From: Escherichia phage AV102
Sequence record: OR352933.1
DNA length: 43,345 nucleotides
Reading direction: 5' to 3' (one strand)
Below the pieces are notes generated by a model. It saw only the letters and a program-made list of their open reading frames with translations. It was not told the DNA's origin and ran no database searches. This document shows positions 4,493-43,179 of the stretch, one piece after another. Each line of letters opens with the position of its first letter. Position 1 is the first letter of the stretch. A program made the position numbers and the translations under genes.

Positions 4493-6348
4493 TATCGTCT
4501 TCCTCTATGTTGTTTGCCTCTACCCCGACTTTGCAGCCGTGCAGCGACTCCCCGCAACTGTTTCTGGACCATACCCTGCGCCCAGTCCAACGGGTTATTG
4601 ATGAATGCTAGTGCCTGCTTCTCAGACTCTCGTGCAGCTACCACTTTCTCGTCTTCTACTAGATGCCCGTTCAGTACTGCGACCATCATAGCGATGGCGT
4701 CTGCTCGGTCATCCTTAGCCAAGCTACCCCGGTCATACGTAATACCTGCGAGCTGTGCGAACGCAGAGTACAACCAGCGACGATCTCGGGAGTATCGCAT
4801 ACAAGTCCCAATATCATCGTGAATAGCACGCTCATGCACCACTAGGCGGTGTCGTCGAGTTACTGGGCTGATTGTGTCTATAATACGACGTTCTTTCTGC
4901 GTGGTGTTGTTAATGTCACGCACACCAATACCAGCAAGGCGACGCTCCCTCAGGCGGTTCAGAATCAACATAGACACAGTACCGTGCCCCATGTTACTCT
5001 CCACCACCATGTCAGAGATATCCAACTCTACGCACAAATCAATGAGCTTATCGATATTCTCAGTGCTTACGCCTCCTTGGAAACCCCCAACGGAGAACAA
5101 GTGAATGTATGAGTTTGCAGCCCCACCAGCAGCATAGGAGACTTCATCCCCACCACAACCAGCTGGGTCCACCACCAGCACCTTGTGCTGATACGGCAAG
5201 TGCATATCTCCGTAGAATGCCGGGAAGTACATCTGCTGACCCATAATCCCCTCATGCTCGTGCTGGTATAAGTACCGGCGGTCCGCAATATAGGAGAAGG
5301 TCTCTGGGGAGGAATCCTGGCTACCAGAGTAAACCAGCATATCCGAAAGCTTGATACGTGTACGCATCTGGTCGGACAGGGTTGTGTCGAGCATGTACTG
5401 CAGCTGGAAGCCTTCCGGACCAAAGTCCAGCTCCTTCTCAATCAGCGCATCCTCGTCATAGCGCCCGGGGTCCGTGCTCTCCCCTAGCGTCCCGTCGACA
5501 CCGAAGCCGGTGCGTTTATAGCCGCGCTCAATAAGCTCCAGGATATAAGGAGCAAGTGTACTTCCATATCGCTCTTCCATTTCAACAGACGGAATGCGCC
5601 CAGGCCACACGCGGACCTCGAAGCCACGTCCCGGCAGTGTTTTATAGATACTGTCCTTGGTCTGTGGTGTACCCAGGTACAGCGTATCCCCGTGCGTACA
5701 GATGGCCGCGAAGTCTTTAGAAATCGTCAGCAGCTGCTCGCGCTGGGTTTGCGTTAAGCCGTTCTTGGTGGTCTCGATATCGTCCGGAATCAGTAGGTCC
5801 GCACGCTTCCCCTGTAGGGATGCAGTGATACCTACACAGGCTACGCTGGCGGACTTATCCAGAGGTTTCAGGTCACAGTGTACGTCGTAACCTTCAAAGG
5901 AGGTTCGGTCCCCACGTGTAGGGTCAGCCTTCAAGTAGCACAGCAGCGGCCAGGTTTCCAGCATCCGAATGATTAAGTTTGCTACATCGGAAGCCTGCTT
6001 CTCAGCACCCGACACAATCAGGATACGGCAGGATTGGTCCTGGATGAGCCTCCAGACAGCGTAGAGCGCAGCTAGTGTAGACTTAGCCTCACCACGCTGT
6101 GCAGCCACCATGCGCTTCCTAGGGCCCTTCTGCATATACTCCGCAATGTCGGCTTGCATGTCCGTGAGCGTAAAGCCTAGGAAGCGCATGCCTATATATG
6201 CGAACTCCCTGAAATTACTGAGGGTAGCCGCCATCATCATGGCGATATCCTCGCGCTCCTCTTTGGGAATACTGCGCGGGTTCGCATTATAACCAGTAAG
6301 TTTCTGGTTGAGCATGCGCAGTCTTCGCGCAGTCTTCACCGATACCAT
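4492..6348 (-). CDS. Terminase large subunit (DNA maturase B)
   Basis: 618 aa; size and position after the small terminase match T7 gp19-like arrangement. Confidence 0.8.
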   Translation of the reverse strand: MVSVKTARRLRMLNQKLTGYNANPRSIPKEEREDIAMMMAATLSNFREFAYIGMRFLGFTLTDMQADIAEYMQKGPRKRMVAAQRGEAKSTLAALYAVWRLIQDQSCRILIVSGAEKQASDVANLIIRMLETWPLLCYLKADPTRGDRTSFEGYDVHCDLKPLDKSASVACVGITASLQGKRADLLIPDDIETTKNGLTQTQREQLLTISKDFAAICTHGDTLYLGTPQTKDSIYKTLPGRGFEVRVWPGRIPSVEMEERYGSTLAPYILELIERGYKRTGFGVDGTLGESTDPGRYDEDALIEKELDFGPEGFQLQYMLDTTLSDQMRTRIKLSDMLVYSGSQDSSPETFSYIADRRYLYQHEHEGIMGQQMYFPAFYGDMHLPYQHKVLVVDPAGCGGDEVSYAAGGAANSYIHLFSVGGFQGGVSTENIDKLIDLCVELDISDMVVESNMGHGTVSMLILNRLRERRLAGIGVRDINNTTQKERRIIDTISPVTRRHRLVVHERAIHDDIGTCMRYSRDRRWLYSAFAQLAGITYDRGSLAKDDRADAIAMMVAVLNGHLVEDEKVVAARESEKQALAFINNPLDWAQGMVQKQLRGVAARLQSRGRGKQHRGRR

Positions 6349-8219: not shown

Positions 8220-11200
8220 TTAATCGTCTCCGAAGTTATTGATGATAGCTCTCGTAGGTGCGAATTCCTGGACCAATGGGACCTGCTTAGTGAAGGTCTG
8301 GATATCCATATTTCCAGTAGCCAGGTCCTGTACCGCCCCCAGTAGACCCGTAACGTAACCCATAGACGCCAGCGAGTGACGTGGAGAGTCCCCAGTGAAG
8401 ATATCCTGCAGAAGCGAGATACCGCCGATGGCGCTCATACCCATAACCGACTCAGCGATAAGCTTCTGAGTGTCGGCCTCTTTGCCGTCCATACCGTGCT
8501 TCGCTATAGTAGCGAGTAGCATCAGCGGGAACTGGTACGCCATGATGTGTGCAACCCCAATCCACCCAGCATCGTTCAGTTCTCGGCGCAGAATCTTGTT
8601 GGTGGCAGCCAGGGCGAAGCTCTGGTAGCCAACGATTACTTTACCAATAGGGTTAAACTGTGCGAAGTGTGAGGTCTCACCGGTACGTACTTGCTGCACC
8701 AGATAATCCATCATTCTGGTACCTACCACCTCAATTTGCATTTGCAGGTCCGGCTGGAACATAGCACCAGGATTAGCTTTGTTAGCAGCAATAGCCCGGT
8801 CAGCGATTTCACGAGTAAGACCGAAACGTTCCAGACGCTTAAACGCCTCAGCGTCGCCCTTGAACATCTGCTGGAGTTCATCCGCTACAATACCTGAGTT
8901 AAGGTTAACCTGCAGTCGATGTACCATACTCATACCGTTGACGTGACGCGCAGCCTGTCCAACGTTCTGGGTGACGTTAAACCAGGAAGCCTGACGGGTC
9001 AGGTCCAAGTTATCGTCTGCGTAGGTATTCAGCCAGCGGAAGCGCATCTCCTTCTGGATACTGCCACGTAGGATTGTATCCAGGCGACTAGCCATGTCCG
9101 GATTACGAATAGCTACGGCACCCTCTTTAAACCAGGGCTGCTCACGCATACTGCGGAGTACTCGGGACATACCAAACTCTTTCAGCGCTAGAGCGGTGTC
9201 AGTAAGCTGGTACAACCCAGAGTTCTTAAGCATGGTAGCGTTGGCCATGTTACCGGCTGCACGGAGCAGGTCCGGCATTTGACCGGCGTCGGCTGGTGCT
9301 CCACCCAGGATAAAGTCAATGGTGTCATTAACGGTCTTCTCCCACTTACCCGAATCGGCTAGGGCGTGTTTGGACTCGTTAATCATCGTCTCCAGCATCT
9401 TGAGGTCAGATACCCCAGCATAAGCCATACCTACACGACCTGACATACGATTGGTGTAACCGTGCATTACCTTGGCTACATCAGTATCCATCAGGTCCTG
9501 CATACGCATAGCCTGACCATCCACGATGTACTCTTTGTCCATGTTGAAGCGGGTACGTTGACGGAGGTTCTTAGCAGGCGAGGTAGCGCCAGATTCTCGG
9601 ACATTACCTGCCAAGAAACTCTGGATTGCACTCTCGTCTACGCCAGCATTACGCATGGCCATAACCACTTCATCATTACCCATACCATTGATGAGTTGCT
9701 TCCACATAGGACCAGAGGCCGAGGAGCGTCCGTTGTAGATACCATCAACCATCTCCTTAGCAACACGTTGAACGACCTCAGGTTCCATAGACGGATACAC
9801 GTCACGTAATGCCTGGCGGAATAAATCTCGGTAGTTATCCAGGGAGCGACCGTTCGCAATACCTTGGCGCATCTTATCGTAGCTGTACTGGCGTGGGAAG
9901 TAGTAGTCTGATTTAATCAGAGTACCTTCATCCACTAAACCGGCAGCGGTCATGTGGTCATGCCACTTACTAGCCCAACCAGAGTTGCGATACGCCTCAA
10001 CAAGCGGAACTAAGTCAGAGTCCGGCAGAGGTACAGGGCGTCCATTAACCTCAGCGCTGTATGCAGAGTCCAAATAACGGCCCAAGCGGTCTTCTAAGTC
10101 AGCGCGAGCTGCTCGGAAGTTGCTACGATGGAAGAAGCGGTCCGTGAAACCTACACCTTTGGCCTTGAGGGCACCAAGTATAGCATCCTCAACTACACTG
10201 GCACTAGCGTCCATCTCCAACGTAAGATTACGTTTGAAGTCCACCACAGACGGTTTACGACCGCCTACAGCAGTAGCGTCAGATACTAATAAGCGTGCCA
10301 GGTCCTCACTACCCTCTGCGATGTTATCATACAGGGAGAACATAGTGGCGAACTTGCGCTTAGCAGTTTCCATCATAGCTTGGGCCTTCAAGGCCTCATG
10401 CTTAACCGATGTATCCGCCAAGTCCTGGAAGGCCTCACTCCGGAAGCTCTGAGCTTGGTCTGCGTAGTCCTTTGCGGTCCACTTGACAGCGTCCTCGTAC
10501 GCGTCCAGAACATCCTCCAGGGCCGAACCCTTGGTACGGACCCCAAGCGCATTCATGATGTACTCACCAATCTGGCGGAGCATGCTTTTACCGGTAGGGG
10601 ATTTAGTTCTAGAGAGGTATTCTACCCACTCAGGGCTGTCGCCTAGTCCGGCCAGCATCTCGTGCACGTCACTGGCATAATACTTAAATTTATCACTAAG
10701 AGTTGAATCTGCTGCTATTGCAGCGCGCACCTCTTCCAGCTTACTAGCAATTTCAGGATTCTGCTTGATGGCTCTGGTGGTGGCAGCGTGAATCAACTCG
10801 TGCACTGCTACTCGGCTAGTGTCCGCATCCATAGCACGCAGAGCATCCCCGGCAGTAGTCCAGGTACTTCCGTTCGCTTTCTTAGGGGCACGTAAAGATA
10901 TAAAACCCCTATCAGTTGTTGATGCTGGTGAAAATCCATAGTGACTACGGTTAGAAGAACCGGCCACCAGTTTAAAGTCGATATCCTGTACTGCGTCACC
11001 CAGGGTGTCCAGGATAGCCTTCTGACCTTTAGATAAGTGTTCAGAGGTCTTGAGGAAACGGACTACGTCCTGCGCTTTCATGTTAACAGCAGCAGTGTTA
11101 TTCCGGCGAACTTGGATAGGTTCATCCAGTACCTTAGTGAGTATTGTGTCCCCTTCTCCTACTCCTGTAACATTAGCATCCCTTGCTGTACGAGTTGTGG

Positions 11201-11918: not shown

Positions 11919-11947
11919 ATTATCTCCTAAAAGAATTTTGATAAGGG

Positions 11948-11965
11948 GAGGCCCCGAAGGGCCTC
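11948..11965 (-). promoter_or_regulatory. Stable hairpin between gp15-like and gp16-like genes: 7-bp GC-rich stem with UUCG tetraloop on the mRNA
   Basis: Plus GAGGCCC cgaa GGGCCTC; on the minus transcript the loop reads UUCG; followed by an interrupted U-rich stretch and the RBS of the gp16-like gene. Confidence 0.55.
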
Positions 11966-11967
11966 TG

Positions 11968-17638: not shown

Positions 17639-18199
17639 TTAAATCATGAAGCGTGCACGACGAATACGACGTGCGAATCTAGTCTTACTGGTACTGTACT
17701 TCTGGTTACGCAGATGCTCTCGCAACACCAGGGACTTGTACCGCTCTGCCTCTGCAGCGTAGTTGGCGTAGTTACCGTCACTGCCGAGGTCGTTCAGGTA
17801 CACCTGCGCAGCAGTGTAGTTTGCAATCCACATGGCGGCATGCTCCGGAAGATCCTCAAAGTTAAGGTCCAGTACCACCTTAATCTTAACAGGGGAATCG
17901 AAGTACTCGTCCTGCTCGACCAGGTTGTAAAGGTTCCCGTCGCGTACGCCGTACTTATTGTCGGAGCACGCATCATACACAGCTAGCTGGTTCCATGGAA
18001 TTTTAATAAAACCATCAGTCGTAGGAGTAACCTCCCGCTCAACTACGTTGAACCAGTAACCGGTACTGAGCAATCCTCGGCGATTACGCGCGAGCGCAGA
18101 GCGTGCTAACCCCGCACTAGGGTTTGAAGTGTTGATATCCATAACGCGAGACTCCCCCAGGGCTTCCAGCGTCAAATTAATGGCGTCTAACTCTCTCAT
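17639..18199 (-). CDS. Tail tubular protein A (gp11-like)
   Basis: Start moved to MRELDAINLTLEALG at 18199 (RBS AGAGGA); the track ORF start at 18325 runs through the terminator and poly-A/T tract and is an artefact. Confidence 0.75.
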   Translation of the reverse strand: MRELDAINLTLEALGESRVMDINTSNPSAGLARSALARNRRGLLSTGYWFNVVEREVTPTTDGFIKIPWNQLAVYDACSDNKYGVRDGNLYNLVEQDEYFDSPVKIKVVLDLNFEDLPEHAAMWIANYTAAQVYLNDLGSDGNYANYAAEAERYKSLVLREHLRNQKYSTSKTRFARRIRRARFMI

Positions 18200-18244
18200 A
18201 TTTGTTCCTCTATTAAAGACCCCTAGGACCCTTAAGACAGGGAC

Positions 18245-18290
18245 AAAAAAAAAAAAAAAAGCCCCCGGCACCCGAAGGCACCAGGGGCGC
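18245..18290 (-). terminator. Intrinsic terminator after the capsid module: 12-bp stem with UUCG tetraloop followed by U16
   Basis: Minus transcript GCCCCUGGUGCC-UUCG-GGUGCCGGGGGC then 16 U (plus-strand A16 at 18245-18260); three G-U wobble pairs mean it folds well only on the minus transcript. Position equivalent to T7 Tphi. Confidence 0.8.
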
Positions 18291-18293
18291 ATA

Positions 18294-18491
18294 TTACTCT
18301 TTAGTTTCTGTACCTGCTGCTGCATCAGCTACTGCATCAACAGCTTTGCGGGTACGCTTAGTAGCTTTGCGGCCAGATTCGACCGAACCTACTTGAATGT
18401 GCTTCGCTACCTCAGAGGCGGCTTTTACCGCCTCACGTTGAGCAGCGTTGGCCTGGAGAGTCTCCAGACCGAACACGGCGATCACTGCCAT
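18294..18491 (-). CDS. Hypothetical small protein (65 aa) between capsid gene and terminator
   Basis: Own RBS GGAGG 4-5 nt before the ATG; Ala/Lys-rich. Confidence 0.5.
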   Translation of the reverse strand: MAVIAVFGLETLQANAAQREAVKAASEVAKHIQVGSVESGRKATKRTRKAVDAVADAAAGTETKE

Positions 18492-22742: not shown

Positions 22743-22759
22743 TCCTACTCCTGTAACAT
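22743..22759 (-). promoter_or_regulatory. Copy 3 of the exact 17-bp element, between the SLOG-like gene and the next ORF
   Basis: Plus-strand tcctactcctgtaacat; minus-strand AGGAG within it also serves as the RBS of the downstream ORF. Confidence 0.45.
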
Positions 22760-22765
22760 TAAATT

Positions 22766-26529: not shown

Positions 26530-26948
26530 TTAATAATCTCCCGTGCTTTGCGTCGTGCCCTGGCCTTGCGGGCCTTGAGCTTCTGTGCCTGTGCCTGTTC
26601 TTCCGGTGTCTTATATGTATAGTATAGCATATCCGTGGGTTCACGGTCTAGGTAGTCGGCAACCCTACGCAGAGATTCAGCAATAGCGCTAGAAGATTGC
26701 ATGCTACCAACAATCCAACGCCCAGCCGCAGAGGCCACTTTCCCCTCTCCACCATTGCATGAGCGATGCAGAGCACCCCGGATGCGCCCAGTAATGTGAC
26801 AATGGTCAACAACAACAGAATCACCAGTCACGCCTCTGATTGTAAAGTCCAATGGTTTACCGCAGAGCAGGCACAACCCACCCTGGTCCTTAGCTAGCTT
26901 AATAGCTACTGAGCGTATCTGCGCCCGGGTAATCTTACGCAGCGCCAT
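26526..26948 (-). CDS. Endonuclease VII-like Holliday junction resolvase
   Basis: VVVDHCHITGRIRGALHRSCN matches the endonuclease VII zinc-binding and catalytic signature. Confidence 0.75.
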   Translation of the reverse strand: MALRKITRAQIRSVAIKLAKDQGGLCLLCGKPLDFTIRGVTGDSVVVDHCHITGRIRGALHRSCNGGEGKVASAAGRWIVGSMQSSSAIAESLRRVADYLDREPTDMLYYTYKTPEEQAQAQKLKARKARARRKAREIIK

Positions 26949-29181: not shown

Positions 29182-29233
29182 AGGCTTCCTCTAAGGCCCC
29201 AGGCGGGGCCATATTAGTTAATAATAGGGTTGC

Positions 29234-31542: not shown

Positions 31543-31563
31543 GGGTTGCCTCTCTTATGTTGT

Positions 31564-31584
31564 TCCTACTCGTATCACATTAAT
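31564..31584 (-). promoter_or_regulatory. Diverged copy of the conserved element (minus TAATGTGATACGAGTAGGA) in the intergenic region upstream of the phosphoesterase gene
   Basis: 14 of 17 core positions match the exact element; lies in the only sizeable intergenic gap of the replication module (31543-31704), about 22 nt upstream of the gene start. Confidence 0.45.
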
Positions 31585-31704
31585 TCTCTGTGAATCACAA
31601 AATCAAGCCAGAGTCAACAAATAATTTTATTTAATTACCTGCTTGACCCCAGCTAATTCTCATGTTACCCTAACCCCCTACACCACCCAAGGGTCCACCT
31701 ATCA

Positions 31705-31926
31705 TCACTCCGCTATAAGTTTGTACTCTCCAGAGAAGAAGGTAATACCATCCCCAGGCTTCTCTGAATTATTGTCTGGATTCATTAACTCCACCTCCCA
31801 GAATTCGGGGTCATAAGATATCACACGATGCTGAGTGCCTGGTGCAAAGTAATCACGATGTCTAGGCTCTAAGGGTTCCGGCCCAAGTCCTAGTATCTCC
31901 ACAATACTACCCGGTTTAATAGTCAC
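31705..31926 (-). CDS. Hypothetical protein (73 aa)
   Basis: ORF immediately downstream of the DNA polymerase gene, 4-nt overlap. Confidence 0.5.
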   Translation of the reverse strand: MTIKPGSIVEILGLGPEPLEPRHRDYFAPGTQHRVISYDPEFWEVELMNPDNNSEKPGDGITFFSGEYKLIAE

Positions 31927-34289
31927 TCTACTTTCTCCTTACTGTACATACTTGTACCCATTTCAGCTTCCGCTGGAAACGGGACTTCGCCAATGATGCC
32001 GTAGTTAGGCCAGAGCTGGTGAATACGCTTAGGTGCATCCTCCATACACTGCTTAACTAACAGGCTCGCTTCTCTACCTACTTCCGGATTAGCACTATCC
32101 AGATACAATGCATCGTGCACGTTCGTAATCAAGCACACCTGATTATTGAACCAATCCCGTGCCAGCATTGCACGCAGAACCATACCAGCTGCTACCGCCA
32201 TCAGGAAGAATGCCTCACCCTGACACCAGTAGTTAGCCATCTCAGTTTCTTTGTAGTCCATCACCTTTTGTTTGCGCTGGCCAGGGACTACTTCCTTCCA
32301 CTGCTCCTTCTGGCGGAAGCTGTACCGTGCACCAGCTGGGCTGGTCCAGGTGCCAATGCGGTAGATGCGGTAGCTGCCATCATCCGCTTGCTCCCGGTAC
32401 ATGCGCCCAGCCGCCCCGGTGCGCTCTACCTCCTCCTTTACTACCGCCCGGAATCCGATGGTGTCTGGGAACAGCTTCGCCTCGTTATCCAGGAACGACT
32501 GTGCATACTCCACTGTACAGCCTGTAGCAAACGCAATCCCTTTAGCCGTAGCCCCGTACTGTGCAGCAAAGCTCGGAGGCTTAATGTCCGTACGCTGCTG
32601 CTTCCAGTATTTGTAGTCCGGCCCATCTGCGTTGTGGCAGAGGTCGTACATCTCTTCGTAGGTTTTGCCCTCCTTGAACGCTAGGCGGTAGCAGTGCATA
32701 TCCGTGCCGTTCTGCAGCAAACCCAACAGCTTCCTGTCTCCGGTGTGCACACAAGACATAACCACTTCCAGGGCAGAGTAATCAACCTCAGTGATACGAC
32801 CGGATTCCCCGAAACGGGAAGTGAACATCTGTTTTACTTTACTAGTTCCATCTCGCGGGAGGTTCTGGAGGTTTGGGTTAGAGCCAGATAGTCGCCCGGT
32901 AACAGTAGCACAGGTGTTAAGGCGGTGGTGGATAATACCCGAACCATCAGGGTTCTGAGGTATAACATATTGGAGCATGCCTGAGGTCTTTTTAATTGAC
33001 CCATCTTCGTTATACTCCGTTCGTAGATAGTAAGTTCCTGTATCCTTTTCCAGAGCGCCCAGCTCGTTCACCAATCTACAGAACTCAAACCCATGACGGG
33101 CCAGCGCTTCCATTGCGTCTGTACTGGTGCTGTAGACTGGTGTGCCGTCCTGCAGGCACCGGGCTTGCCTGAACTCTCCGCGCTCAGCATATTTCTCTCG
33201 GAGTACCTCTGGGAGCTCTTGGATGTTAACCAGGCCCGGGCAGAAGTAGAGGTCGTCCTCCCATTTGAGTTTCTCTTCCGCTGTATCTATGCGGAAAACT
33301 TTTGGTAAGCCCTTGTTCTTACCGGCCTTGTAAGTAACGAAGTTGTGTGCACCACTGACATCCGTACTTTCACAAGGTACAAACGTCCCCTCTGTACCTT
33401 GCACTAGATAGGCATCCACCTTCACATACTGCGGTGGGTCGTAGGGCACCTTCTTGCGGTACTTGATAGGGCCGCCATATACCAGCGCAGACATGTGGAA
33501 GTCAGACCCGAAGTTGAAATCCAACGTCTCCGGTAAGTCCTTGGGGATATACTGCTGCAGCTCCTGCTTAATCTCCAGGATACGCTGCTCCTGTTCCTCT
33601 TGGTTCTTGCGTGCAATAGGCATGTTCACGAACAGGCCGAACCATTCGCAGTAGGCCCAAGCCAGCAACGCATCCATACGCTCCCATACGTACTGCATCT
33701 GATTACGCTGGGCGAAGATATTGCACTGCCCGTAGAAGCACATGGCCGTGTTCGGGATATCCCCATTAACCAGGTAGTCGTGCAGCAGCATCGGGTCAAT
33801 CTGGGAGGTTAACACGCCCTGCTCCCAGAGAATCTTAACCCCATCTACTTTGTGCGTACCACCATACTTAGGAGCCGTCTCGTCCAGTGACGGATACATG
33901 CTCTGAAAGTCCGAGGCGATGTATTCCCCGTGCATTGTGCAGAACACCCTGCCGCCGCGCTTGAGGAAGGCCTCAAACTGCTGCCGCTGGTACGTGAGAA
34001 ACCAAGAAATCTCATAGGCTGCGTTGTGCGCAACAATAAGCCAGCAATCCTCGGGGATATGAAACCACCGGCAGCCTTCTGCTGCACTGTTTCCCGCCAA
34101 GAAATCAGCTCTTGAATTGAAGCGCACCGATTGAGTCGCGCCAACAGTGGTAGTACCGTCAGCCTGTGTCGTGTCGATACGCCATGCGGACTCAACAACA
34201 TAGTTGTCAGGGCAGTATGGGCTTGCTTTAGAGCCATAATATTCATTGTTCTCCGTCTCCAAGTCGATGTGCATTATACTGGTTGTCAT
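31923..34289 (-). CDS. DNA polymerase, family A (T7 gp5-like) with 3'-5' exonuclease domain
   Basis: IDLETEN (Exo I), DYSALEVV (motif A), KPPSFAAQYGATAKG (motif B), NVHDALYLD (motif C). Start set at MTTSIM (34289; RBS GGGAGG); the track ORF extends to 34307. Confidence 0.9.
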   Translation of the reverse strand: MTTSIMHIDLETENNEYYGSKASPYCPDNYVVESAWRIDTTQADGTTTVGATQSVRFNSRADFLAGNSAAEGCRWFHIPEDCWLIVAHNAAYEISWFLTYQRQQFEAFLKRGGRVFCTMHGEYIASDFQSMYPSLDETAPKYGGTHKVDGVKILWEQGVLTSQIDPMLLHDYLVNGDIPNTAMCFYGQCNIFAQRNQMQYVWERMDALLAWAYCEWFGLFVNMPIARKNQEEQEQRILEIKQELQQYIPKDLPETLDFNFGSDFHMSALVYGGPIKYRKKVPYDPPQYVKVDAYLVQGTEGTFVPCESTDVSGAHNFVTYKAGKNKGLPKVFRIDTAEEKLKWEDDLYFCPGLVNIQELPEVLREKYAERGEFRQARCLQDGTPVYSTSTDAMEALARHGFEFCRLVNELGALEKDTGTYYLRTEYNEDGSIKKTSGMLQYVIPQNPDGSGIIHHRLNTCATVTGRLSGSNPNLQNLPRDGTSKVKQMFTSRFGESGRITEVDYSALEVVMSCVHTGDRKLLGLLQNGTDMHCYRLAFKEGKTYEEMYDLCHNADGPDYKYWKQQRTDIKPPSFAAQYGATAKGIAFATGCTVEYAQSFLDNEAKLFPDTIGFRAVVKEEVERTGAAGRMYREQADDGSYRIYRIGTWTSPAGARYSFRQKEQWKEVVPGQRKQKVMDYKETEMANYWCQGEAFFLMAVAAGMVLRAMLARDWFNNQVCLITNVHDALYLDSANPEVGREASLLVKQCMEDAPKRIHQLWPNYGIIGEVPFPAEAEMGTSMYSKEKVE

Positions 34290-34468
34290 TGTACAGTTGC
34301 CTCCCACACTTGGAATCTACCTGTTACGTACTGGGCAGTGCATTCATCTGCTACAGCTTTACCGTGAGCCTCTGCGTCTTCCTTTTTGTGCCACAAGGTT
34401 ATATGCTCACCGAAGTGGTCATACCCGTCTGTTTCCCAAGTCTCACATACCCATACTTTCATTTCCAT
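34286..34468 (-). CDS. Hypothetical protein (60 aa)
   Basis: ORF abutting the polymerase start; preceded by a further possible 51-aa ORF (34459-34614) with a GGAGG RBS. Confidence 0.4.
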   Translation of the reverse strand: MEMKVWVCETWETDGYDHFGEHITLWHKKEDAEAHGKAVADECTAQYVTGRFQVWEATVQ

Positions 34469-34636
34469 TTAGCCCTCCGAGCCTTGTTAATTGCCAAGTG
34501 CACAATCAGCTGGCTGCTATCCAGTGCGAACCGTTTACGGAAAGTACCTGCAGATGCAGCGTACGCCTTGATTACCTCATCGTCGAGATAGTTAATGTCT
34601 AGTGGTTTAAGCATGGTAGCCTCCTATGTACCTACA

Positions 34637-34659
34637 TAGCGCCCTCTAGGAAGGCGCTA
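34637..34659 (-). promoter_or_regulatory. Hairpin downstream of the helicase gene, related to the early-region hairpin family
   Basis: 7-bp stem TAGCGCC/GGCGCTA with 9-nt loop; shares the 3' flank GGGCGCTATGT (minus strand) with the hairpins at 41871 and 42656. Confidence 0.45.
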
Positions 34660-34665
34660 GGGAAG

Positions 34666-35946
34666 TCACTTGTTAATCTGCCCTTCGTTAAAGCGGCACC
34701 TACCTGGGTCGAACGCTACCTCGAACTGTAGTAGCGACTCTTTACCTGATAGAGCCATCTTGTTTTTTGGTGTGCTGATACCACGAATGTTTTGCATATG
34801 CGGCTGCTCGTTCCTGTCCAAGCACCCCATCATAATCGCCAAATCCAAAGCACCTTGTACACCAATCTTACTCTGTTTCATTGCCGTGAGCGGAGGGAAC
34901 AGCAGGTTGTAACCTTCGAGTGAAAGCTGCATAGTACCGATAACGGCACAGTCATTCTCACACCCCAGGATACGCAGCTCCTGCCACTTCGCTTCTAGAT
35001 TCTGGTGCTCGCTCTCCATAGTACCACCACGGATGTTCGCCACCATGTCAATGATGATTACCGCTGGGCGCATCTCCTCCATGAGCGTAGAGATTTGAGC
35101 CATCGTAAGGGAGTGCGCTGCCTTGATACGGATGCGGTCTGCCCTACCTACTTTCTCCAGATAGGCTGGCACAAACTCTTGCTTACTGTGCCTGTCCTTA
35201 ATCTCAGCCAGAGTCCAATGCAGCGCCGCTTGATATACCCTCGGCACAGTGCGCGTCGCCGGGCCTTCATTAACCAACCATAGAATCGGACGGTCTCCGT
35301 ATACTTCCGGTTGTTGCTGCATCTGCTTAGCAAAGTCCACAGCAATAGCAGCGAGTAGGCTAGTTTTACCAGAATCAACAGGGGCAGCCACAGCAATACA
35401 ATCACCACCGCGAAGCCCACGGATGTTATTAGAGAGTTGCTCAAATACACCCAGCTTAAGACCGCCACTTTCATCAGTTGCGGCAAGTATCTCATCAACA
35501 CTTCCGCTCTCCCACTCTAGTAGCGAATCATGAACAGCAGCACCATCACCGTACTTGCGCTGGAGGTGCTTCATCTCCAGCAGATAATCAACCTCCTCGC
35601 CGTCTTGGTAGCGCTGTGTGAGCGCTGCAACCTCTCCGCTGTACGCCAGCTCGTTCAGGGTCTGCACAATCCCCACCACAGAATCCTGTGGTACGGCTTG
35701 TACTCCTCGCATAAGCTCGTCCATGATTACCCTCTCTTCCCGGGATAAGTGTCCGGCCCGGAGATTGAGCATACTCTGCATTGCGTCCCACTGCACCTCC
35801 TGGTGCTCCGGGTACGTGTTCCAGTACAACCCCACCCAGTCCAGTAGGTTAGAGGTATCGGGGGCGAGCATGCTCTTGGGTATCTGCTCTCGCAGTCGGT
35901 TCCAGACCTTCTGTGTGCACATTGCCTTGACTACTATTAGGTCCAA
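34666..35946 (-). CDS. Replicative DNA helicase (DnaB/gp4 helicase-like)
   Basis: Walker A AAPVDSGKTSLL; 426 aa; separate from the primase. Confidence 0.8.
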   Translation of the reverse strand: MDLIVVKAMCTQKVWNRLREQIPKSMLAPDTSNLLDWVGLYWNTYPEHQEVQWDAMQSMLNLRAGHLSREERVIMDELMRGVQAVPQDSVVGIVQTLNELAYSGEVAALTQRYQDGEEVDYLLEMKHLQRKYGDGAAVHDSLLEWESGSVDEILAATDESGGLKLGVFEQLSNNIRGLRGGDCIAVAAPVDSGKTSLLAAIAVDFAKQMQQQPEVYGDRPILWLVNEGPATRTVPRVYQAALHWTLAEIKDRHSKQEFVPAYLEKVGRADRIRIKAAHSLTMAQISTLMEEMRPAVIIIDMVANIRGGTMESEHQNLEAKWQELRILGCENDCAVIGTMQLSLEGYNLLFPPLTAMKQSKIGVQGALDLAIMMGCLDRNEQPHMQNIRGISTPKNKMALSGKESLLQFEVAFDPGRCRFNEGQINK

Positions 35947-36171
35947 TTATACAAACTCCACTCTGATAGTTCTGTTTGGGCCACCAACTTCATGAACATA
36001 GTGACGGAAGTATTCTAACTGCAGTCGCCGCTTTGCATCTTCCAGTGCTTGGTGGTACTGTACCAGCTTATGCTCCTCCCGCTTGCTACGGCAGTATCCA
36101 CACTTAAGGTCGTGCCAGGAGCGATAACCTTTTCCACAGTCACAAACATGGCTAATTAATTGTACGCCCAT
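35947..36171 (-). CDS. Small zinc-ribbon protein
   Basis: CDCGKGY...CGYC; start MGVQ at 36171 (RBS GGAGG; TAATG overlap with upstream stop); the track ORF extends to 36219. Confidence 0.5.
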   Translation of the reverse strand: MGVQLISHVCDCGKGYRSWHDLKCGYCRSKREEHKLVQYHQALEDAKRRLQLEYFRHYVHEVGGPNRTIRVEFV

Positions 36172-37830: not shown

Positions 37831-38861
37831 CCCTCCACAATATTATCATATCCACCCCAGTCCTCTACAACTCGGGTGCCTAGTTCAATCAGTTCTTCTT
37901 TGAAGCCATAATCAGAATACACCATGATGTACTCTGCCGCCCTTGCTGGATTATCTAGCACCCAGCTAATCAGTTGCTGCTTAGAAAGTTGTGACACCTC
38001 CTTAAACGCTGCTAGTAAATGTGGATCCTCCGTAGGGGGAACATCCAATGGCATCGTTAGGGGATGCGTATAGGCAGATAACCACGCATCCGGTTCCACT
38101 ACTTTAGGATCACGCTCAATCGGTAGGTGCTTGAATGTACCCGGACTAAGTACGTGCTCCAGTACGCTACCAAGAATGCTAAGGTCCAGCACCTCATCCG
38201 GAGTATGCTCGTGCATGTACCCTACACCTACGTTAGTGCATTCTGGGATAATCTGCATGAACTCAGCGGAGTCAGTGTATACTCCTTTCTGTAAGTGCGC
38301 ATCCGTCCGCCCCAGTCGAGCCGCCAGTTCTTTTGCGAACGTATCAGAGCAGCAACGCTGGTACCGTTGATGCGTAATGATACCATCACCTCGGCGGTCA
38401 AAACTGATCATTGCCTTGACACCAGTCCAGAAGCCAGTGTCGTCCTTGGCGGATGCATTGCTACCTTCACAGCCTACCTCTTCATCCACGAAGAAGCAGT
38501 AACGTCCATGTACTCCCCGCTTAATCATCTCCAGCATCAGGTAAATACCGGCACCACAGTCCGCTCCGAGGCAGTCTGCAACCTGCGGGTTACGCAGGAA
38601 CATTACACCCTTGTTAGTGATTGCAATGTCTGGCGCAGCGCTACCAGGCCGGGCCACTGTATCCAGATGTGAAGTAAACGCTACATCACTCTGTTCAGAG
38701 CCACCAATAAGCACAAAGTAGTTACCATGAGCGTCTCTTACATAGTGCTCTGCACCAGCAAGAGCGCTACTAAGTAGAGGTTCAAACCATTTGGTACTAC
38801 CCCAGCTAGGTCGGTGCGTTGTTAGTATCTTTGTCAGTAGTTTAAGGTCAACACCATACAT
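37827..38861 (-). CDS. M28/M20-like dinuclear zinc exopeptidase-fold protein
   Basis: Ordered motifs SHLDTV (His/Asp), GADCGAG (bridging Asp), VDEEVGCEGS (Glu-Glu), HEHTPDE (His...Asp) match the M28 aminopeptidase signature order. Confidence 0.6.
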   Translation of the reverse strand: MYGVDLKLLTKILTTHRPSWGSTKWFEPLLSSALAGAEHYVRDAHGNYFVLIGGSEQSDVAFTSHLDTVARPGSAAPDIAITNKGVMFLRNPQVADCLGADCGAGIYLMLEMIKRGVHGRYCFFVDEEVGCEGSNASAKDDTGFWTGVKAMISFDRRGDGIITHQRYQRCCSDTFAKELAARLGRTDAHLQKGVYTDSAEFMQIIPECTNVGVGYMHEHTPDEVLDLSILGSVLEHVLSPGTFKHLPIERDPKVVEPDAWLSAYTHPLTMPLDVPPTEDPHLLAAFKEVSQLSKQQLISWVLDNPARAAEYIMVYSDYGFKEELIELGTRVVEDWGGYDNIVEG

Positions 38862-41846: not shown

Positions 41847-41870
41847 TTGAAACCTCGTTGTTAACGGTAT

Positions 41871-41901
41871 TCACATAGCGCCCCGCAGGACGCTATAGGC
41901 T
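41871..41901 (-). promoter_or_regulatory. Conserved early-region hairpin element, copy 1
   Basis: Minus transcript AGCCUAUAGCGUCC-UGCG-GGGCGCUAUGUGA: 10-bp stem including G-U pairs, so strand-specific. Confidence 0.55.
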
Positions 41902-42034
41902 TACCATTATACGTATTCTCCCAATCCCTCATAGTGCCACCTGTTATGGCGGCCCCGGGTTGGCACATCAAAGGCGTCAGAGTCGTTAGCTGCCGGAATC
42001 AATGCCCACCACTTGATAGCTTGAATCTTATAAA

Positions 42035-42619: not shown

Positions 42620-42655
42620 GATGCACCTCTTTGATTGGTTGTTTAGGTAATTACT

Positions 42656-42686
42656 TCACATAGCACCCCATAGGATGCTATAGGCT
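42656..42686 (-). promoter_or_regulatory. Conserved early-region hairpin element, copy 2
   Basis: Minus transcript AGCCUAUAGCAUCC-UAUG-GGGUGCUAUGUGA: same 10-bp stem as copy 1 with one G-C pair replaced by A-U. Confidence 0.55.
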
Positions 42687-42690
42687 GTAA

Positions 42691-42906
42691 TTAGCGTCCG
42701 AACTGCCCAGCAGTGTACCAGCCTTGCGGGGCCTTGCTGCTTCCCTTTGTTTTGGTCTTACCGCGTACATTCGTACTAAACGTCGCAGATTGCTTCATCC
42801 GCATATACCCAGCACGATTAAGTGCATCCCGGCGTTTTCTCAATTCCGAACCGGATAGCTTCTCAAGTCCAGCGAATTGCTGTGCTAACTTCTCACGATA
42901 TTTCAT
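42691..42906 (-). CDS. First early gene, small basic protein
   Basis: Start MKYREKLAQQF at 42906 (GAGGTG RBS); the track ORF starts 15 nt upstream. Confidence 0.5.
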   Translation of the reverse strand: MKYREKLAQQFAGLEKLSGSELRKRRDALNRAGYMRMKQSATFSTNVRGKTKTKGSSKAPQGWYTAGQFGR

Positions 42907-43179
42907 TGTACACCTCATCAAAGTTAATGGTTAGCGCCCTAGCAGTGTTTAGCAGGACGCTAACTTTTAACCTTGTTGCCCACTGCACTACCGTGGAACC
43001 TGTGGTTCAGGTTTCGGCGCTATTCTTTTAAGGGGCAGCGCCTCAGCGCCCCCGCCGTTTGTCGTCTCGGCCCTTGACGTTACATCTTTGCTGCACTGAT
43101 TATCTAGGATTGGTCGTCATCGTACCAGTCAAGGTACTGGGCCTCACCGCAAATCAGCTTACTACGTTGTTCGCTATCT

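Follow-up and report, generated by a model that had tools for sequence, protein, structure and literature searches.

The replication module of Escherichia phage AV102 (sequence record OR352933.1) contains a short hairpin, designated c1, in the gap after the gene for a replicative helicase and ahead of the DNA polymerase gene, and the question raised by this locus is what such an element does there. The whole stretch of 43,345 nucleotides (nt) that was analysed is called the window, and its genes are read on the minus strand. A sequence-only reading had described c1 as a stem of 7 base pairs (bp), as the third member of a hairpin family with two copies in the early region, and as the mark of an operon junction, at which RNA processing or termination might be detected. 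The answer that is favoured here, with moderate confidence and by analogy, is that c1 is a processing signal for the host RNase III, built like those of phage T7. RNA processing is the best-supported function, given the fold of the sense strand, the conservation of the element and its architectural match to the RNase III sites of phages T7 and T3.

As defined by RNA folds and by a 43-nt block conserved in relatives, the whole element comprises 44 nt (34626-34669, minus strand) and spans the gap from the stop codon of the helicase gene to the ribosome-binding site of an open reading frame (ORF) of 51 amino acids. In the direction of transcription it consists of the 5' strand of a lower stem, GUGACUU (34669-34663), which includes the TGA stop codon of the helicase gene (34668-34666), the 5' side of an internal loop, CCC (34662-34660), an upper stem-loop UAGCGCCUUC-CUA-GAGGGCGCUA of 10 bp with a 3-nt loop (34637-34659), the 3' side of the internal loop, UGU (34636-34634), and the 3' strand of the lower stem, AGGU-A-CAU (34633-34626). 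The minus-strand sequence of 34659-34637 is TAGCGCCTTCCTAGAGGGCGCTA. The third pair of the upper stem, counted from the loop, is its one U.G wobble, and the internal loop joining the two stems is made up of C×U, C-G and C×U. The sense strand of c1, folded as a 45-nt RNA, reached -20.0 kcal/mol (z = -3.48), in comparison to -14 kcal/mol (z = -1.27) for the antisense strand. The hairpin noticed in the sequence-only reading is thus real in the RNA folds, but its stem has 10 bp rather than 7 and stands on an additional lower stem. A scan of the whole window against Rfam at E <= 10 gave two chance-level matches only. A microRNA model of Rfam placed over the c1 hairpin scored 20.4 bits against a gathering score of 82 and was rejected as a chance-level match.

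A megablast search with positions 31900-36000 returned 268 phage records, predominantly of Klebsiella and Escherichia phages of the genus Drulisvirus (KP34-like Autographiviridae), with the best matches to Escherichia phages Minorna and PSK2 (identity 93-95 %), and by this sequence similarity the window is a Drulisvirus genome. c1 was found in 60 of 61 related contigs, in the form of 17 distinct 45-mers. The variation gathered in the 3-nt loop, which is free among the relatives (CUA, UAU, UAC, UCU or UAG), and in the two pairs beside the loop; in the rest of the element 2 of 36 columns were variable, in comparison to 30 % of the columns in the neighbouring 300 nt of helicase coding sequence. 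The conserved block reads GTGACTTCCC-TAGCGCCTTC-NNN-GAGGGCGCTA-TGTAGGTACA, and its boundaries, enclosing 43 nt, are the ends of the lower stem. One-sided changes that preserve pairing were present as well: A-U to G.U (relative L045), U-A to U.G (L040) and an exchange of G-C and G.U at the base of the lower stem.

The block has also been kept where the junction was rearranged. A gene for an HNH endonuclease (Pfam HNH_3) lies between the helicase gene and the hairpin in two relatives, L047 (3775-4203) and L048 (3775-4233), an HNH insertion after the helicase gene was likewise found in L006, L012, L035, L046, L049 and L053, and in the relatives with such an insertion the hairpin block is intact beside the downstream ORF. 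The inserted HNH gene and the helicase gene end alike, in AAGTGA, and L048 has an additional ORF of 105 amino acids at the insertion. No orthologue of c1 was found in L058, with a helicase locus of 74 % identity, in Proteus phage PM75 or in Vibrio phage M9. At the junction in these three genomes the helicase gene is followed without a gap, and c1 is therefore genus-specific.

The early region of the window offers a view of how such hairpins vary. The early copy c2 (41860-41911, minus strand) comprises a lower stem, an AGCC/UGAA internal loop, a 10-bp upper stem and a UGCG loop, and the early copy c3 (42645-42696, minus strand) has the same build, with the lower stem UAAUUAC/GUAAUUA and an upper stem in which one G-C pair has become A-U through compensatory changes. 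Both were scored highly (69.9 and 72 bits, respectively) by a covariance model built on 49 distinct early-region copies from IMG/VR relatives. The same model also recognized c4, a divergent copy that precedes the first early ORF (42918-42976, minus strand; 17.8 bits, E = 0.012) and folds as UUAGCGUCC...GGGCGCUAA with a longer upper stem, an 8-nt loop and a lower stem of AAGGUUAA/UUAACUUU.

When the 49 early copies were placed on the two-tier structure, 91.5 % of the cells were paired and 10 pairs had been changed on both sides. The covariation score was 0.396, in comparison to 0.138 in shuffles, none of 500 of which reached the observed value, and to at most 0.136 in slid controls. The lower stem is wholly different between paralogues and variable within them too (for example UAAUUAC/GUAAUUA, AUGGUA/UACCGU, GGUUAAU/AUUAACC and GUAGCA/UGCAAC), and the upper stem is nearly fixed, with the G-C to A-U swap as the single exception. 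In the two U.G wobbles of the early copies U always stands on the 5' side, so the helix can form in the sense strand only. All 81 matches of the early-copy model in 40 related loci and KP34 lay on the coding strand. Three relatives (L075, L083 and L096) carry three full early hairpins instead of two (about 1333-1384 and 1421-1472), the third with its own perfectly complementary lower stem GGUUAAU/AUUAACC; the hairpin family therefore gains and loses copies.

c1 is a divergent relative of these early hairpins, and its membership of the family is partial. On the coding strand it has the upper-stem sequence of the family, UAGCRYC...GRGYGCUA, and its exact 5' arm UAGCGCCUU also occurs within early copies of two relatives (L064 and L096). 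The family build is present too: two tiers with a 10-bp upper stem, in an intergenic position on the sense strand just 5' of a ribosome-binding site, and c1 and the early copies are alike in the U.G at the third pair and in the C×U/C-G opening of the internal loop. The internal-loop flanks of the family, AGCC(U)/(G)UGAA, are replaced by CCC/UGU in c1, and the early-copy covariance model gave c1 8 bits, through a local match to the upper stem, and did not list it at E <= 10 over the window. Membership as a third copy thus held for the upper-stem sequence, the strand and the position before a ribosome-binding site, but not for the internal-loop motif or the covariance score.

The 3' flank said to be common to c1 and both early hairpins was exact in one of them and differed by one mismatch in the other: 34634-34644 and 41873-41883 both read GGGCGCTATGT, an 11-mer of which 42658-42668 holds the variant GGGTGCTATGT. 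The register of the 11-mer differs, as it occupies levels 3-13 from the loop in c1 and levels 1-11 in the early copies. The pattern TAGCNYC-N(3-12)-GGGYGCTA, composed after the copies were known, had three matches in the window, all on the minus strand, in comparison to 0.04 expected from shuffles.

The two-tier build has a known counterpart in the RNase III sites of T7 and T3. T7 was folded at the coordinates that we take, after Dunn and Studier, to be its RNase III sites (890, 1468, 3138, 5887, 6448, 11203, 13892, 18563, 27281 and 36856), and T3 at the ten stem-loops annotated as "RNase III recognition site" in its RefSeq record. In these folds the canonical site has a variable, covarying lower stem, an internal loop of 5' (A)CUC and 3' UAUGA, an upper stem of 9-11 bp that is conserved among paralogues (AAGGUC...GGCCUU) and a free loop. 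The Drulisvirus elements share a variable lower stem, a small internal loop opening with C×U, a 10-bp upper stem with U·G, and a free loop. The agreement extends to single levels, counted from the loop. In T7 R0.5, R1.1 and R18.5 levels 1-10 are paired, level 11 is C×U, level 12 U-A and level 13 C×U, followed by A×G and a lower stem offset by a 3' bulge. In c1 levels 1-10 are likewise paired and levels 11, 12 and 13 are C×U, C-G and C×U, with the lower stem next; in c2 and c3 ten paired levels are followed by C×U, C-G and G×A, then by A×A and the lower stem. With about two helical turns of double-stranded RNA and an internal loop between an upper stem of about 10 bp and a lower stem, c1 is built as the T7-group sites are.

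These features were put into a structural descriptor: a 10-bp stem (G.U allowed) and a loop of 3-5 nt, with level 11 required to be C/U, level 12 paired and level 13 unpaired. Applied to T7, it recovered R1.1, R0.5 and R18.5, with matches ending exactly at 5887, 1468 and 36856, respectively, which are presumably the cleavage coordinates of these sites. In the window it matched c1, c2, c3 and one further site, c5, and nothing else; all four lie on the minus (sense) strand in intergenic gaps, and 0.22 matches were found per shuffled window. Roughly 6 % of the window falls in gaps of 35 nt or more, and it is therefore very unlikely that chance placed all four matches in intergenic gaps and on the sense strand. 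The same four sites were matched in KP34, and Proteus phage PM75 gave chance-like matches only. The descriptor also matched T7 (L063) at 38526-38556 on the plus strand, within gene 19 (ACCTTATGGAAGCTGGAGGTTTCCGTGATGG); we know of no RNase III site there, and this match is probably a false positive.

The element c5 (18201-18247, minus strand; descriptor match 18210-18238) was found by the structural descriptor only, and its sequence is unrelated to that of the other copies. It reads UUAAGGGUCC-UAG-GGGUCUUUAA, followed by C×U, U-A, G×G and a lower stem, and it lies between the terminator of the capsid operon and the ribosome-binding site of the gene for tail tubular protein A, with its lower stem overlapping the Shine-Dalgarno sequence. 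It is conserved in relatives, where one-sided changes keep the pairing, and is also present in KP34 (26667-26695). Its 3' arm resembles that of T7 R18.5 (GGUCUUUAU). The terminator beside it is a strong Rho-independent one, GCCCCUGGUGCCUUCGGGUGCCGGGGGC followed by 16 U (~18246-18291, minus strand), and stands after a small ORF following the capsid gene, as annotated in KP34. Tail tubular protein A starts with the ATG at 18199, ahead of which lies a Shine-Dalgarno sequence; the listed ORF, 17639-18325, begins too early.

What is on record about substrate recognition by RNase III (Pertzev & Nicholson 2006, PMC1540722) can be set against these elements. Substrates are typically two helical turns long, and the cleavage site is not set by the tetraloop (PMC1540722); the Drulisvirus elements measure about two helical turns and their loop sequence is free among copies. 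With an internal loop, RNase III cuts a single bond and a protective hairpin remains at the 3' end, a G-C pair blocks binding at position 2 of the proximal box and catalysis at position 4, R1.1 has a U-C pair at that position 4, and the optimal distal box is UA/UG (PMC1540722). The correspondence of boxes and levels used here was worked out in this analysis from the text of that paper, through the pairs U12:G27 and C13:G26 (PMC1540722), and what follows holds as far as that text gives the positions. On this mapping c1, c2, c3 and c5 agree at three levels: level 3 is U.G, level 9 is A-U or U-A, and level 11 is C×U. No G-C therefore falls on proximal-box position 2 (level 9) or 4 (level 11, C×U as in R1.1), and the level-3 U.G of the Drulisvirus elements coincides with the distal-box U.G of R1.1.

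The likeness to the T7 and T3 sites (R0.3, R0.5, R1.1, R1.3, R4.7 and R18.5) includes the genomic setting in addition to the two-tier architecture. In both groups the sites are intergenic, on the sense strand of long polycistronic transcripts and just upstream of ribosome-binding sites, with an upper stem conserved among paralogues and a covarying lower stem. Both groups include several early-region copies, plus one that separates the helicase block from the DNA polymerase gene, and both kinds of phage grow on enterobacterial hosts with RNase III. The position of c1 corresponds to that of R4.7, which the T3 RefSeq record places between gene 4.5 and the DNA polymerase gene, and that of c4 to R0.3, annotated there ahead of the first early gene. 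There are differences as well. The upper stem is UAGCGCC... in c1 and AAGGUC... in T7 and T3, and the internal loop, about 4/5 nt in T7 and T3, has in c1 a smaller, symmetric form of 3/3 nt around a central C-G. The T7 sites mostly follow a phi promoter, whereas c1 has no adjoining phage promoter. Sequence homology between the two groups was not found, and cleavage of c1 by RNase III is a prediction.

The mechanism that this analogy suggests is as follows. c1 would act as RNA within the minus-strand polycistronic transcript of the replication genes, which are expected on a long transcript because they have no promoter of their own. The two-tier hairpin of roughly 20 levels would be recognized as double-stranded RNA by host RNase III, and owing to the small internal loop only a single phosphodiester, on the 3' side of that loop, would be cut. 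The cut is predicted after U34634 (GCGCUAUGU^AGGUAC; 34633-34634, minus strand), 13 nt past the loop in the 3' direction, by analogy with the distance in T7 R1.1, R0.5 and R18.5, and the descriptor match for c1 ends at 34634. Cleavage would leave the helicase on one message and the DNA polymerase, together with two small ORFs, on another. On the helicase message the 10-bp hairpin would be retained as the 3' end and would hinder 3' exonucleases, and the downstream message would start with AGGUACAUAGGAGG..., about 8 nt ahead of the Shine-Dalgarno sequence, which would be released from the lower stem. Effects on message stability and translation would accompany cleavage. By the same mechanism c2, c3, c4 and c5 would divide the transcript at their own positions, in the manner of the T7 and T3 R sites.

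Several observations weigh against processing by RNase III. A covariance model of 14 T7/T3 sites gave no significant match in the window: c3 (12.1 bits, E = 2.3) and c2 (11.6 bits, E = 3.1) were within the top three, c1 scored 5.4 bits in a misaligned position and c5 scored 3 bits. The descriptor was devised after both sets of hairpins were known and is partly post hoc, with c5 as its only out-of-sample case, and the T7 cleavage coordinates are presumed ones that agree with the T3 annotation and with the folds. c1 is near-invariant in its orthologues, and its own lower stem shows no compensatory changes because the orthologues barely vary. The distal box of c1, as far as the published text allows it to be placed, is U.G, C-G and differs from the canonical UA/UG in that its second pair is not A-U. 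The very high conservation of the upper-stem sequence would equally fit a sequence-specific binding factor. Literature searches on transcript mapping or RNase III sites in Drulisvirus and phiKMV returned nothing relevant, and no Drulisvirus data on cleavage or transcript ends.

Homology of c1 to the T7 site family was also considered as such and was rejected by the 14-site model; the architectural analogy remains. Since the model gave no significant score, the resemblance of c1 to the T7/T3 sites is one of architecture and context, not of a sequence family.

The evidence of structure, strand and conservation would apply equally to a structural RNA that is not cut by RNase III. Such an RNA could be a 3'-exonuclease barrier after a cut by RNase E elsewhere, an insulator or translational modulator that hides sequence beside the ribosome-binding site, or a site at which RNase III is bound and does not cut. 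The Shine-Dalgarno sequence adjoins the end of the 3' strand of the lower stem in c1 and is covered by that strand in c5, as would suit a modulator of translation, and motifs that uncouple RNase III binding from cleavage exist (PMC1540722). A plain barrier or insulator, however, needs no fixed 10-bp stem, no C×U at level 11 and no second stem in five differing elements, and these combined constraints are what the T7/T3 cleavage sites show. An uncleaved structural RNA is therefore regarded as unlikely.

It is rather improbable that the sequence UAGCRYC/GRGYGCUA is read by a sequence-specific factor, encoded by the phage or by the host and other than RNase III, such as a translational repressor or an endoribonuclease. 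The upper stem is near-identical in c1-c4 and invariant over about 60 genomes, beyond what pairing needs, and this favours such a factor. T7/T3 RNase III sites, however, conserve their upper stem equally among paralogues, c5 keeps the architecture although the sequence of its stem is unrelated, and the loops vary freely. In the hairpin operators of MS2, PP7 and boxB, in contrast to the free Drulisvirus loops, loop bases are read.

Action at the level of DNA, as a promoter (for the phage or the host RNA polymerase, or as an extruded hairpin of the N4 type), as a site-specific nick or as a palindrome for replication or protein binding, is a further reading. The "putative phage promoter" of Kp34likevirus was published as AGCCTATAGCGTCCTACGGGGCGCTATGTGAA, with a nick site offered as the alternative (Eriksson et al. 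2015, PMC4411677), and c2 and c3 are this motif (PMC4411677). c1 is like it in the upper-stem sequence UAGCGYC...GGGCGCUA followed by UGU, and unlike it in its 3-nt loop, in the absence of the AGCC/GUGAA flanks and in a shift of the shared sequence by 2 bp against the structure. In vitro KP34 RNA polymerase produced no RNA from a fragment bearing the early copies, and the promoter that this polymerase really uses is T(A/G)ATGTTACAGGAGTA (Lu et al. 2019, PMC6834552). That test covered the early copies as linear polymerase chain reaction (PCR) DNA with the phage RNA polymerase only (PMC6834552), which formally leaves room for an extruded-hairpin promoter or one used by the host RNA polymerase. 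The copy at the helicase/polymerase junction is mentioned in neither paper (PMC4411677, PMC6834552), and since the promoter test of 2019 the Drulisvirus hairpin motif has been without an assigned function.

Exact copies of the strong promoter T(A/G)ATGTTACAGGAGTA were found in the window at 474-489, 11160-11175 and 22746-22761 (all minus strand), none of them near any hairpin. One of the copies falls within the gene for an internal virion protein of 1232 amino acids. As the corresponding promoter is 475 nt from the left end of the KP34 record, the copy at 474-489 means that the window is permuted relative to that record. At or near 34600-34700 there was no match to this promoter within 3 mismatches. 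In most relatives c1 is followed on its 3' side by UAUGUAGGUACACAGGAGG, which has a loose likeness to the KP34 promoter and was rejected as one, since the match would need two indels and exceeds 3 mismatches. The promoters and c1 are alike in being short conserved non-coding repeats of the same phage genus, and unlike in sequence, in position and in the lack of a hairpin in the former. In the promoter and terminator scans no copy of the hairpin gave a sigma-70-like site or a terminator, and c1 is not followed by a U-tract.

The nick-site consensus of the phiKMV type, CGACNNNNNCCTACTCCGG, had 4 matches with 3 mismatches in comparison to 2.98 expected, and none of them was at a hairpin. The promoters of the N4 virion RNA polymerase resemble c1 in being short G+C-rich hairpins with a 3-nt loop in a phage early or middle region. 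They are, however, stems of 5-7 bp in template-strand DNA, read by a giant virion RNA polymerase that, to our knowledge, is lacking in Drulisvirus, whereas the wobble pairs of the Drulisvirus hairpins work only on the non-template (mRNA-sense) strand and turn into C×A mismatches on the template strand. Conserved U.G wobbles, compensatory changes in the sequence-variable lower stem and a strict strand bias fit RNA and not a duplex operator. A DNA-level element is for these reasons held to be very improbable. There is a slim chance that the upper stem is read by a phage RNA-binding regulator or endoribonuclease, or that it forms an extruded-hairpin promoter undetectable in the linear-DNA assay; if a dedicated factor or an extruded promoter of this kind were true, the likeness to the T7 architecture would be mimicry only, and the hairpins of Drulisvirus would count as a new regulatory signal of phages, in RNA or DNA.

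A terminator or pause signal between the helicase and polymerase units is scarcely credible: a stable G+C-rich hairpin does lie in the intergenic gap, but its 3' flank UGUAGGUACAU has no U-tract and the terminator scan was blank at c1, the bona fide terminator of the genome after the capsid operon carries a run of 16 T, and termination at c1 would silence the essential polymerase gene because this gene has no promoter of its own downstream. The operon junction of the sequence-only reading consequently did not stand in the transcriptional sense, as neither a sigma-70-like promoter nor a KP34 RNA polymerase promoter nor a U-tract terminator was found at c1, and long read-through transcripts are expected because of the lack of such signals.

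The gene context, on the other hand, is the one described from the sequence, with the helicase gene followed by two small ORFs and then by the polymerase gene, as verified with the ORF list and Pfam. Upstream of c1 lies the gene for a DnaB-like replicative helicase (34666-35946, minus strand; Pfam DnaB_C and AAA_25), annotated as "DNA helicase" in Minorna and KP34. The two small ORFs occupy 34459-34614 and 34286-34468 on the minus strand. The ORF of 51 amino acids directly 3' of c1, which is also annotated in Minorna, has the Shine-Dalgarno sequence AGGAGG at 34625-34620 and its ATG at 34614-34612. The family-A DNA polymerase gene (31923-34307, minus strand; Pfam DNA_pol_A) lies downstream, past the two small ORFs. 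In the RefSeq record of KP34 no feature is annotated at the helicase/polymerase hairpin.

Other intergenic structures were observed in the window. The 162-nt gap downstream of the DNA polymerase region (31543-31704, minus strand) contains a long A+T-rich hairpin, GCUGGGGUCAAGCAGGUAAUUAAAUAAAAUUAUUUGUUGACUCUGGC, followed by a degenerate sequence like the KP34 promoter, TAATGTGATACGAGTA (3 mismatches, 31567-31582). This gap may be a weak or middle promoter, or the region of a replication origin. G+C-rich intergenic hairpins without U-tracts, GGCCCCGCCUGGGGCC (29182-29233, minus strand) and GAGGCCCUUCGGGGCCUC (11919-11967, minus strand), are not matched by the two-tier descriptor; they may serve to stabilise 3' ends or as weak terminators.

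Processing by RNase III as the role of c1 and its relatives would give a testable function to the sole long repeated non-coding motif of the KP34-like phages, formerly published as a promoter. KP34-like phages are among the most often isolated therapy phages of Klebsiella and E. coli, and KP34 RNA polymerase is under development for RNA synthesis; if the proposal is true, the hairpins would be sequences for phage engineers to spare when genes are inserted after the helicase gene or before the tail genes. The proposed mechanism itself is classical, and by the T7/T3 analogy these hairpins are probably a Drulisvirus-specific addition to the processing signals of the T7 type. The proposal predicts that the long early/middle transcript is divided into stable messages, and if cleavage takes place, the T7-type RNase III architecture would be present in a second lineage of Autographiviridae, with site sequences of its own.

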